Assembly (NCBI GenBank): GCA_951406725.2
Contig: OX597821.1
Location: 22,568,001 to 22,632,000, forward strand
Reading direction: 5' to 3'
From: Octopus vulgaris
Lineage: Eukaryota
DNA length: 64,000 nucleotides
Part shown: piece by piece, positions 59,901 through 62,900 of the stretch
Layout: each line of letters starts with the position of its first letter
How positions within the stretch are numbered: the stretch's first letter is position 1
Made by a program: the position numbers and the translations under genes
Notes under the pieces: model-generated
What the model was told of the DNA's origin: nothing
What the model saw: only the letters and a program-made list of their open reading frames with translations
The model's database searches: none

Positions 59901-62900
59901 ATCCGCTTTCCATGCTAGCATGGGTTGAACGGTTCAACTGGGGTCTGTGAAGCCGGAAGGCTTCATCAGGCCCAGTCAGATTTGGCAGTGTTTCTACGGC
60001 TGGATGCCCTTCCTAACGCCAACCACTCCGTGAGTGTAGTGGGTGCTTTTTGTCACATGTTTTTATAAATCATATATTAGCGCTTGCGTCCACTCTATAT
60101 ATAAAACTATCCAGATTTCTGAGTACCTTATTTCTTCTAATATATATATATATATATATATATTACGGAGATGTACTCGCATAGCAAGTAATTTGATCTG
60201 AGATCGTGTGCTGAAACGAAAACAATTGCAGCGTGGAAGGTGTTTATAAGCCATTTAAGAAACACACAAAAGCCGTTCGATTCACTCCAACATTTAAGTT
60301 TAATTTGTCAAAATATTTTCGTCGCTAAAATCCGCGACCTGTTCACTGACAAAGTCCGTGCTGCATCACGGACTTTGTCAGTGAACAGGTCGCGGATTTT
60401 AGCGACGAAAATATTTTGACAAATTAAACTTAAATGTTGGAGTGAATCGAACGGCTTTTGTGTGTTTCTTAAATGGCTTATAAACACCTTCCACGCTGCA
60501 ATTGTTATATATATGCACGCGTGCACACACAAACACACACAGATAATACATTTGAAACCATGATCATCTGATCTTGAGCACAATACCTTAACCACTTATC
60601 CACCTGCCTTCGTCTACATATATACATAAACATGCACACACACACACACACACACATGCATACATACATCATATACATACATATATACACAAATACACAC
60701 ACACTTTTTGACTGCAGAATAAAACCTGATGATTTTATTTTTGAAACTAAGAATAATAGAAACAACAAATTCTCCCAGACCAACTGACTGACCTGTTAAA
60801 GACAGCATGTGTGAGATATGTAGATGTCCTTTTTAAATGGCTTTGACCAATACTGTCAACTGGCTTTTCACCAATAATTCCAGACAGTTCTTCCTGAAAT
60901 TGGAAACGGTAACATTCTAGAATCAATCAAACTGTCAAACTATGGGAGAGTGAGAGAGAGAGAGAGAGAAAGAGAGAAGTTGATGGTGGTGGTGATGGTG
61001 GACAGAGCTTGCATTGATGAGATACGCTGATGGACAATCATGTGCTGATGGTAGTGAGAGCTTGCTATGATGGGCTATTTTAGTGGTCAGTCATGTGACC
61101 GGTGGGAGTGGTGGTGGTGGACAGGGCTTGTTGTGATGAGATGTGTTAGTGGACAATCATGTGTGATTGGAGGTAGCAGCGGTGGTGAAGGCTTGCTGTG
61201 ATGGGTTACTTCAGTGGTCAGTCACGTGACTGGTCAAAGTGGTAAAAAGGGCTGGCTGTGATGGGTTGTTCTGGTGGTTATCAATCATCTAATGACTGTG
61301 GCGATGGTGGTAGAGAAGAAGGCTGATGAGATACTGCATACCAGCTGCCCCACCTCAAACCCCCAGTAGTACAAAACAGTACTAGTATATTGGTTGGGGA
61401 TTTTTTTAAAGTTGTAAAGTGAGGTAAGATGAAATCAGTTCTTACTTACAGCAGTTTTAGGTGATCCAACAATGGTGAGGAGGTCGTTGAGGTCCTTCAC
61501 AGAAACTGTTTCATCCATAGAGACAGAAACCTGCAAAAGAATGGAGAGGGAGAAAGAGAGATATAGAAGGACAGATAAATGAGGGTGTTTAGTGTGAGAA
61601 AGGGAGACAGGATGTGTGTGAGTGAGAGAGAGAGAGAGAGAGAGAGAGAGAGAGAGAGAGAGAATATGTGAAGTGTGAGAGAGAGAGAGAGAAGAGAGAA
61701 AGACAAGGCAGATACCTGAGGGTGCTTAGTGAGAGAGAGAAAGACAGGATGTGAGTAAGTGTGAGTGAGATAGATAGCATATGTGCATGTATGTGAAAGA
61801 GAAAGTGAGATGTAGCAAGTCTTGCTATGAGTGTGTACATGTGTGAGTGAAAGACAGTGTGTGTTGAAGAGAAAGTGTGTGAGAAAGAAGTAGTAACAAA
61901 TGTGTGTGTGAGAGAGAGAGAGAGAGAGAGAGAGAGAGAGAGAGAGAGAGAGAGAGAGAGAGCATAGGTGAGAAAAAATAATTGGTGCTGCTGGGTGTAC
62001 CAGAGTGAAGTTAAGAGGTTACTATGACAACATACCCATCCATCTTGGAAGTATCTCAAATTGACCATTTTCTCATTTGCTCTCTGTTTCAGTGCTGTTA
62101 AGTCACCTTTTGGGAGGAACTTCACTGTGTCAAAGACAAGGTCAGTGTGAAGAGTGTGGCCAGCTTGACGGACACCTGATCAAGAAGCAAGAATCAATTA
62201 GAGATGGTAAGGGTCACAGACATTGTACAACACACTTTACATAATCCTGACAAAATATTTCTAGCTTGGGATGACTCCCAAAGACACAGGACTCTTCACC
62301 CTATGAGATGACATCTGGTGTACCACAGGGATCTGTTCTTGCCCCCCTTTTATTTGTTGCATATGTTAATGACATAGATGCCAACTTAAAGAATGCCACA
62401 GTGCTGAAATATGCAGATGACAGGACAGTGCTGCAACTATGCACACACAAATGTCTTGGACTAAATCCAGCTGACTGGAATTCAATCAGTAATAGACATG
62501 TTCCAGAATCTGGTCTACAGACCTTCTGTCTCCTCTCTCTGCCTTTCCTATAGCTATTATAATGGTTTTTTTATTTCTTTATTGCCCACAAGGGGCTAAA
62601 CATAGAGGGGACAAACAAGGACAGACAAAGAAATAAGGACAGAAATTTTTTTTCATCAACACTGGAAGTCAGAGTTAAGAGATTATAATGGCCATTATAA
62701 TGGTTTCTGCTTAAGGTGGTGATTAGGCAGAATTTTTACTGCACCAAGCATTTCGTTCATCTTCACATTCTGTGTTCAAAAGCTGCTGAGGCCAACTTTG
62801 CCTTTCATCTTTTTGTGGTTGATAAAATAAGCAGCAATTGAGTACTGAGGTCGATGTAATCGACTTACTCACTTCCCTGGAATTGCTGGCCTTGTGCTGA

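Follow-up and report, generated by a model that had tools for sequence, protein, structure and literature searches.

The question raised by this locus is what a perfect palindrome, whose arms each carry a hammerhead-like ribozyme motif with an unusual core, is doing within an intron of GLDC in Octopus vulgaris, in a 64,000-nucleotide stretch of contig OX597821.1 (positions 22,568,001 to 22,632,000 of assembly GCA_951406725.2; hereafter the window, to which all coordinates refer). The answer that we favour, at a probability of roughly 0.65, is that it consists of two head-to-head pieces of the pseudo-long terminal repeat (pLTR) of a Penelope-like element (PLE), each with a natural G3:C8 hammerhead that is likely still to cleave itself slowly, assisted by dimerisation or by protein. 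Within this answer, two parts are firm: the palindrome, which sits in a (TA)n tract of the GLDC intron, is a pair of head-to-head pLTR pieces from a young Penelope-like retroelement, and it is one of many such insertions in the genome, not a unique locus. As judged from sequence comparison, the exchange of C3:G8 for G3:C8 is a real, derived and natural covariation between lineages.

An earlier note on this DNA had described a perfect palindrome with 140-bp arms, and the arms at 60221-60360 and 60367-60506 are indeed exact reverse complements of 140 bp each, with a 6-nt spacer between them; its outer bounds, in contrast, have to be widened, since the left arm is part of a 204-bp unit that reaches to 60163. 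The right arm corresponds to positions 7-146 of this unit, the complete form of which lies on the minus strand, from 60366 to 60163. Numbers prefixed by L are labels of fetched loci, L031 being one of 16 ten-kilobase stretches, and the concept of a tail is taken from PMC8557442 (Fig. 2 legend) and PMC11167929. The parts of the palindrome and its flanks are as follows:

60163..60366, minus strand: complete 204-bp pLTR unit, 100% identical to L031:7823-8026, the 3' pLTR of a full-length element; it contains the RNA start region, the hammerhead, the 5' untranslated region (UTR) and the first 30 codons of the open reading frame (ORF), which continues in L031
60163..60220, minus strand: 58-bp tail, present in the left arm only, between the recurrent 3' end points at unit positions of about 145 and about 204
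60304..60353, minus strand: hammerhead motif identical to that of the right arm; the sense copy in the GLDC pre-mRNA, following its own antisense
60367..60506, plus strand: second, shorter, inverted pLTR piece, which stops at the short 3' end point
60374..60423, plus strand: minimal type I hammerhead motif (stem I, core, extra G, stem II, GAA, helix III segment, U17)
60381..60387, plus strand: core GUGAACA, where G3 (60381) and C8 (60386) replace C3 and G8
60410..60416, plus strand: helix III segment, self-complementary from A15.1 to U16.1, followed by U17 (60416), the nucleotide at which cleavage is predicted
60473..60506, plus strand: first 11 codons of the element ORF (ORF start at L031:2970), cut by the short 3' end
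60138..60162, no strand: (TA)n flank, the insertion target
60506..60514, no strand: (TA)n flank on the opposite side

The hammerhead parse of the right arm that had been proposed holds: stem I has 7 bp (60374-60380 with 60417-60423), stem II has 5 bp, an extra G follows the core, and the stretch AAUAUU at 60410-60415 forms the helix III segment. The minimal type I positions U4, G5, A6, A9, G12, A13, A14, A15.1:U16.1 and H17 are all present and G10.1:C11.1 is kept, while the C3 and G8 of the canonical CUGANGA core are replaced by G3 and C8, which still pair in Watson-Crick fashion. Stem III had been called self-complementary, which is correct, although the palindrome proper spans 6 nt, the 8-nt version taking in A14 and U17. 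When any Watson-Crick 3:8 pair is accepted, a descriptor locates three sites in the window, one in each arm and one in a further copy at 36323, whereas 40 shuffles of the window gave 0.025 sites on average. Stems I and II make up the predicted minimum structure of the 50-mer 60374-60423 (-14.7 kcal/mol), and within the 204-nt unit stem I pairs with predicted probabilities of 0.70-1.0 and stem II with one of 1.0. In four sequencing runs the contigs carry no other letter at G3 or C8 at the 5% level, A>G differences in these contigs being indistinguishable from alleles. An Rfam scan returned no hammerhead match here, and five loci with canonical or near-canonical minimal motifs were likewise missed by it.

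A Penelope-like origin had also been suspected, and the linkage check bears it out: a full-length parent was found in which an ORF encoding a reverse transcriptase (RT), a linker and a GIY-YIG domain is linked to the motif. The parent copy in L031 opens with a pLTR, which is followed by the ORF, interrupted by one stop and one frameshift, then by a 3' UTR rich in microsatellites and by a second pLTR, so that the same pLTR stands at both element ends (L031:2882-3061 and 7823-8026), with the ATG of the ORF inside the unit. In L047, a further copy, the frame is open over 1025 aa and contains RT motifs, the CX3CxxC linker and GIY-YIG, the last matched by PF01541 at residues 915-1005 (E 1.8e-5, above the Pfam cut-off). 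The sequences DKSG, MDV, GAIG and YVDD, which we take to be the RT motifs of those names, were found by script in the element ORF; Pfam gave no RT match in three L031 frames or the L053 frame, and the protein homologues include one entry named reverse transcriptase domain-containing. Long inverted forms of the element are present in L032, L047, L048, L052 and L064. The linker reads CX3CxxC in this family, here called family A, and CX4CxxC in family B, a sister PLE with 61-62% RT identity to family A, many intact frames of 1,310-1,312 aa, and a protein 98% identical to an entry labelled Octopus vulgaris. Family B (L053-L059, L063) is in addition very young, with near-identical frames, and has an asparagine-rich insertion in its ORF. 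Three metagenomic relatives (L127, L129, L145) show 29-48% identity. By the criteria of Craig 2021 (PMC8557442), the element is a C-terminal endonuclease-containing (EN+) PLE of the Neptune/Nematis type, an assignment made to the two jointly.

The element is abundant. A DNA search of its own genome with the repeat gave at least 65 matches from 40 scored of 859 candidates, most of them 99-100% identical; a 21-mer of the younger subfamilies has 4,877 exact genome matches (control 0), and a 16-mer of the G3/C8 core has 7,562 (control 2). Among the first 100 of the 4,877 matches we counted 24 head-to-head pairs at most 400 bp apart, and no tail-to-tail or short tandem pairs; extrapolated from these first 100, the genome would hold about 1,170 palindromes, or roughly 1,200. 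Insertion ends were sampled in genome order (61 sites, 84 arms); most copies of the element are pLTR-only, and solo arms are common (40/84). A DNA search with the 63-bp tail gave no match, which reflects a limit of sensitivity, the tail being present in many fetched copies. The head-to-tail tandem arrays that mark non-LTR retrozymes are not what is found here, with 0 short tandem pairs against 24 head-to-head ones in those first 100 matches. At one locus, L082, an older pLTR unit is repeated in tandem together with its flank, in at least six copies spaced about 425 bp apart, an arrangement that resembles a later segmental tandem duplication and that would place several sense hammerheads in one transcript.

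These counts bear directly on the idea that the palindrome is a regulatory device specific to GLDC, whether a self-silenced ribozyme or a small-RNA hairpin, or else a miniature inverted-repeat transposable element (MITE) with terminal inverted repeats, an idea invited by the perfect 140-bp hairpin in a GLDC intron and by weak Rfam matches to microRNA precursors. Its sequence, however, is 100% identical to the end of a young retroelement present in thousands of copies, and where a MITE would have equal terminal inverted repeats of fixed length, the arms are unequal at 22/22 sites, their lengths vary between sites and the centre is variable. The microRNA-precursor matches lie far under the gathering score (47.8 vs 100 bits) and were rejected as hairpin artefacts. 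We consider a GLDC device or a MITE very improbable.

That the core GUGAACA is a compensatory double change, as had been claimed, is borne out by the relatives of the element, in which C3:G8 or U3-G8 stands at the same position in sister families and outgroups. The hammerhead of family B lies upstream of its ORF start and has C3:G8 at the same place, but with A9C; C3:G8 occurs in 16/19 of its motifs, counted in fetched loci without de-duplication. An older group found by pattern (the C group, 22 copies) has stems I and II nearly as in family A and downstream sequence like that of family B; G8 is present in 15/22 of them, while position 3 is occupied by C in 7, by T in 10, by A in 3 and by G in 2. 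The loci of this group (L273-L297, L349-L370) are old PLE ends whose hammerhead mostly has a wobble of U3 with G8; a canonical C3:G8 sub-branch and a few G3-G8 copies occur among them, and the group may hold intermediates of the swap. Three of 78 metagenomic relatives (L127, L129, L145) carry a hammerhead 120-400 nt past the ORF, four further descriptor matches (a second one in L145, one in L192, two in L201, with C3:G8 or U3:A8) being left uncounted; because all three are C3:G8, that state is likely to be ancestral, as far as sequence comparison can tell. A canonical C3:G8 form of family A was not found among the matches, the non-G3 ones being single changes on a C8 background or members of other families.

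Across lineages, columns 3 and 8 pair in 13/13 chosen rows (GC 6, CG 4, UG 3), and the covariation score of 3:8 together with stem II is 0.434, against 0.238 when shuffled (0/500) and at most 0.128 in slid controls, a score that is no probability, since the 13 rows were hand-picked and are related. The count was restricted to 3:8 and stem II because MAFFT misaligned the 3' strand of stem I in the rows with a shorter helix III; a structural parse adds two-sided compensatory changes in stem I, stem II and pair 15.2:16.2.

The exchanged pair has also persisted. In an older subfamily of 38 arms, G3 is kept in 37/38 and C8 in 38/38, and majority changes fall on 0 of 42 core and stem positions, on 5 in loop II and on 11 of 154 outside. 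Core and stems are the better conserved part (0/42 vs 11/154), although the contrast is modest, at about p 0.05, and the 38 rows include the L082 tandem duplicates. A more diverged lineage, D (23 copies, 7 without a recognisable 5' half), was collected by its 3' half only, a choice by core pattern being liable to bias the counts; it keeps G3 in 14/16 and C8 in 13/16, while N7 has changed to C, loop II has changed, and the helix III palindrome, AAUAUU in family A, is shortened to AAUU. Jukes-Cantor (JC) distances to the group majority are 0.004 for 8 young arms, 0.10 for 12 old ones and 0.22 for 18 of the 23 D copies, and the old G3/C8 lineage is about 20% diverged. On the scale of Bonar 2026 (PMC13282606) a JC distance of 0.2 corresponds to about 56 million years, and because the distances are read on that scale, the swap would be, roughly, tens of millions of years old.

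Does the motif cleave? We think it probable that some weak activity is retained, a judgement that draws on sequence and folding. Every catalytic position other than 3 and 8 is kept, which counts for activity, and in the hammerhead of an anole PLE the C3G/G8C double mutant restores part of the cleavage, with a protein needed (Frangieh 2024, PMC11167929); the same rescue mutant appears in a review (PMC8495972). The UUU cleavage triplet, which the earlier note had regarded as suboptimal, is less of a worry than supposed, U17 being ordinary for the class and present in 24/56 published PLE-type motifs (Cervera and de la Pena 2014, PMC4209133, Fig. S3). Minimal PLE hammerheads are slow even as dimers (PMC4209133). 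The ribozyme would act, if at all, in full-length or tandem element transcripts, in which two sense copies could pair through helix III, and the inserted complementary DNAs (cDNAs) would derive from uncut RNA. Its working context is the full-length element, not the GLDC locus.

Several observations weigh against retained activity. No arm among the 84 starts at the predicted cut (unit 56|57), the nearest starts being at 52 and 54, and for this reason cut RNA has left no trace in the genome. In folding predictions the active-type dimer reaches -27.2 kcal/mol, compared with a dimer minimum of -31.3 and with 2 x -14.7 for two monomers, and an extension of the helix III palindrome over A13, A14, U17 and U1.1 is possible and would be in competition with the core. 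The C1 row of the structural parse has an unpaired stem I. The cores of the relatives are non-standard (A9C in family B, mostly U3-G8 in C2, a variable position 3 in the C group), and this, on sequence grounds, is what relaxed selection would look like.

Several of these points feed a different account of the same element, according to which the motif is a relic that has lost its catalytic activity wholly or nearly so, G3 and C8 having arisen separately under relaxed selection and the stems being retained for another reason, such as binding of the element protein or translation control. The sister families with A9C and U3-G8, the few C-group copies with G3 and G8, the lack of copies starting at the cut site, the active dimer that folding does not favour, and the finding that hammerhead mutants of the anole element were without effect on insertion in vitro (PMC11167929) all fit it. 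What it accommodates poorly is that G3 and C8 are both retained, in lineage D as in the youngest copies, whereas N7, loop II and the length of helix III changed, and that U4, G5, A6, A9, G12, A13, A14, A15.1:U16.1 and G10.1:C11.1 were all kept; we rate it as unlikely, though a serious contender.

The stretch might alternatively be conserved mainly as DNA, as part of an internal promoter just past the start site, with no significance in the hammerhead fold as such. Only about 15 nt separate the motif from the inferred RNA start, and the internal promoter of Penelope has a downstream element (PMC2377424). Compensatory changes in the stems and in the 3:8 pair indicate, however, that RNA structure is what is kept, and from one subfamily to another the distance to the start site shifts by one to two bases. 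Shifts of this size are not known to be tolerated by strict downstream promoter elements. This promoter account is improbable, and a slowly cleaving G3:C8 hammerhead remains the reading that we prefer.

How the palindromes form can be read from the ends of the sampled arms. The 3' ends fall at unit positions 196-206 in 49 arms and 140-148 in 29 of the 84, and each of the 22/22 two-armed sites combines one long with one short 3' end (chance 2e-7 if the two were independent), that is, an inverted truncated copy with a tail at only one of its ends; in family B, too, the ends fall at two places in the ORF start, homologous to these. The insertion target is likewise recurrent, 52/84 arms ending at (TA)n, no more than 4 nt from (TA)3. 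At the other side, mapped with gaps (peaks at 14 and 41 in ungapped mapping are artefacts of subfamily indels), 42/84 arms begin at unit -4..+2, 11 continue upstream, and the rest are truncated further in. A G precedes the start in 11/14 arms that begin at -1 and in 30/30 inspected loci (15 solo, 15 inverted), whose upstream sequences are otherwise unrelated; a pattern that omits C and T gave 763 matches with G or A at this base, and of the first 100 of them 93 have G. The parent has T or C there.

This extra G suggests a copied cap, and hence an RNA start at the common 5' end. Copying of the cap as an extra G has precedent in other retroelements. For PLEs, a single literature search turned up nothing on cap copying at the level of titles and abstracts. 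Against the cap, the common 5' end also resembles a splice acceptor, and an intron is described in the promoter region of Penelope (PMC2377424); both readings may apply. A longer spliced first exon as the source of the sharp 5' end was considered and rejected, the 30/30 loci sharing only one upstream G. At L031:7797-7824 and L394-L423, the common 5' end resembles both a branch point with splice acceptor and an initiator, and an untemplated G precedes it.

The long/short pairing and the common 5' end with its untemplated G suggest that two cDNAs run to the capped RNA end and are joined. The element RNA would begin, with a cap, about 15 nt before stem I. Both strands of a (TA)n tract would be nicked by the RT-endonuclease, and from the opposite nicks two cDNAs would be primed, each at its own internal start site, the two sites lying 58 nt apart in the ORF start. 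Both cDNAs would be extended towards the 5' end of the RNA, in many cases with the cap copied as an extra G, and be joined head to head. At some junctions (L035, L042, L044, L079) the pLTR 5' end is repeated or begun anew in short pieces, which suggests several template jumps per insertion.

For GLDC itself the consequences appear slight. Exons of the gene lie on the minus strand on both sides of the palindrome: PF02347 matches at 63569-63820, human GLDC residues 378-425 fall in frame 61592-62179 (E 0.009) and residues 483-543 in frame 55444-55818 (E 1e-17), the exon or exons for residues 426-482 being unplaced by the protein comparisons, and Pfam matched 1/7 candidate GLDC exon frames. Either strand of the palindrome is predicted to fold into one long hairpin of about -268 kcal/mol, and a read-through transcript, including the GLDC pre-mRNA, would form a 140-bp hairpin burying the motif; because each strand has one sense motif, preceded by its antisense, dimerisation in cis is not expected at the palindrome. 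The self-silencing in the pre-mRNA that had been proposed is thus physically right, but it is a by-product of insertion common to about 1,200 sites, with no sign of a role in GLDC, and the insertion here is probably an ordinary one.

A second insertion, of an older subfamily of the same element, lies at 36250-36520, also in the GLDC span, with a G3:C8 hammerhead at 36316-36366 (plus strand) that is flanked immediately upstream by an inverted arm, itself truncated, and downstream by (TA)n. Long open frames at 42082-42906, 47102-47761, 55848-56237 and 62275-62550 look like pieces of RT or endonuclease genes of non-LTR retrotransposons in GLDC introns. Many dispersed repeats of 200-400 bp, in both orientations and 84-95% alike, occur between 3683 and 63359 of the window; they are probably like short interspersed nuclear elements and could also form intronic double-stranded RNA.

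The element and the ribozyme are both of known kinds, whereas a natural G3:C8 core variant in thousands of copies is apparently unreported. In the parts of the literature drawn upon, a natural G3:C8 hammerhead was not found and the variant appears in engineered form only (PMC11167929, PMC3884650, PMC8495972), and the main text of the octopus repeat paper (PMC13282606) mentions neither hammerhead nor ribozyme in those parts. Large earlier surveys may list one. That of Lunse in 2017 is said to comprise about 150,000 PLE-linked variants. The widest form of our interpretation, which we advance tentatively and with less than even confidence, is that this would be the first-described natural G3:C8 lineage, active and under selection for tens of millions of years and invisible to a CUGANGA search, and that the roughly 1,200 palindromes would be the footprints of a two-ended insertion process (an RT dimer, two fixed internal sites, a capped end and head-to-head joining) that seeds double-stranded RNA hairpins in introns.

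The 3:8 pair is central to the active hammerhead fold, and its G3:C8 form has served as proof of this in the laboratory; the octopus lineages with G3:C8, C3:G8, U3-G8 and A9C cores in nearly the same scaffold offer a ready series for asking whether PLE hammerheads are kept for cleavage, for slow cleavage or for something else. Motif searches that fix CUGANGA undercount such ribozymes, also in elements reported to lack them, and the pairing of long with short ends and the sharp 5' end with its extra G supply countable genomic predictions for how the inverted structures of PLEs arise.

Among known systems, the octopus motif is closest to the minimal type I hammerheads of PLEs (Cervera and de la Pena 2014, PMC4209133), with which it shares the pLTR location, the lack of a stable helix III, the palindromic 15.2-16.2 segment, an extra nucleotide between 9 and 10.1, G10.1:C11.1 and the common U17; it differs in its G3:C8 core and in the extra nucleotide, G in octopus and H in the published consensus. 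Of the 56 rows of Fig. S3 in that paper, 53 are C3:G8, 2 are U3:A8, 1 is U3-G8 and none is G3:C8, a form that the descriptors used there, which required C3:G8 or U3:A8, could not find. Natural covariation at 3:8 has been published as U3:A8 (Perreault 2011, PMC3088659; the Cercyon PLEs of Schistosoma, PMC4209133); the octopus case is alike in being natural 3:8 covariation, whereas here both bases are transverted, to a purine at 3 and a pyrimidine at 8, and in a whole lineage of more than 7,500 copies. The laboratory C3G/G8C rescue mutant (PMC11167929; PMC8495972) has the identical core change and was partly active there; in octopus it is the natural state.

Where insertion is concerned, Poseidon of Anolis (Frangieh 2024, PMC11167929) is alike in that its RT can start at either of two internal sites in the ORF start, by which a tail is set off, and alike also in the nicking and extension of both strands, in AT-rich targets and in uncut RNA as template; the octopus element belongs to another clade (CX3CxxC linker), has a tail of about 58 nt, and shows in its genome a strict pairing of long and short ends and a sharp 5' end with an extra G. 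The Neptune and Nematis C-terminal EN+ PLEs (Craig 2021, PMC8557442) share the RT, the Zn-finger-like linker, GIY-YIG, the inverted 5'-truncated copy, the tail on one end and (TA)n targets, and differ from the octopus element in that most of its copies are pLTR-only. The non-LTR retrozymes of animals (bioRxiv 10.64898/2026.07.22.740005), finally, are also non-coding, PLE-derived repeats with a type I hammerhead, but they form head-to-tail tandem arrays, while the octopus copies are solo or head-to-head pieces.

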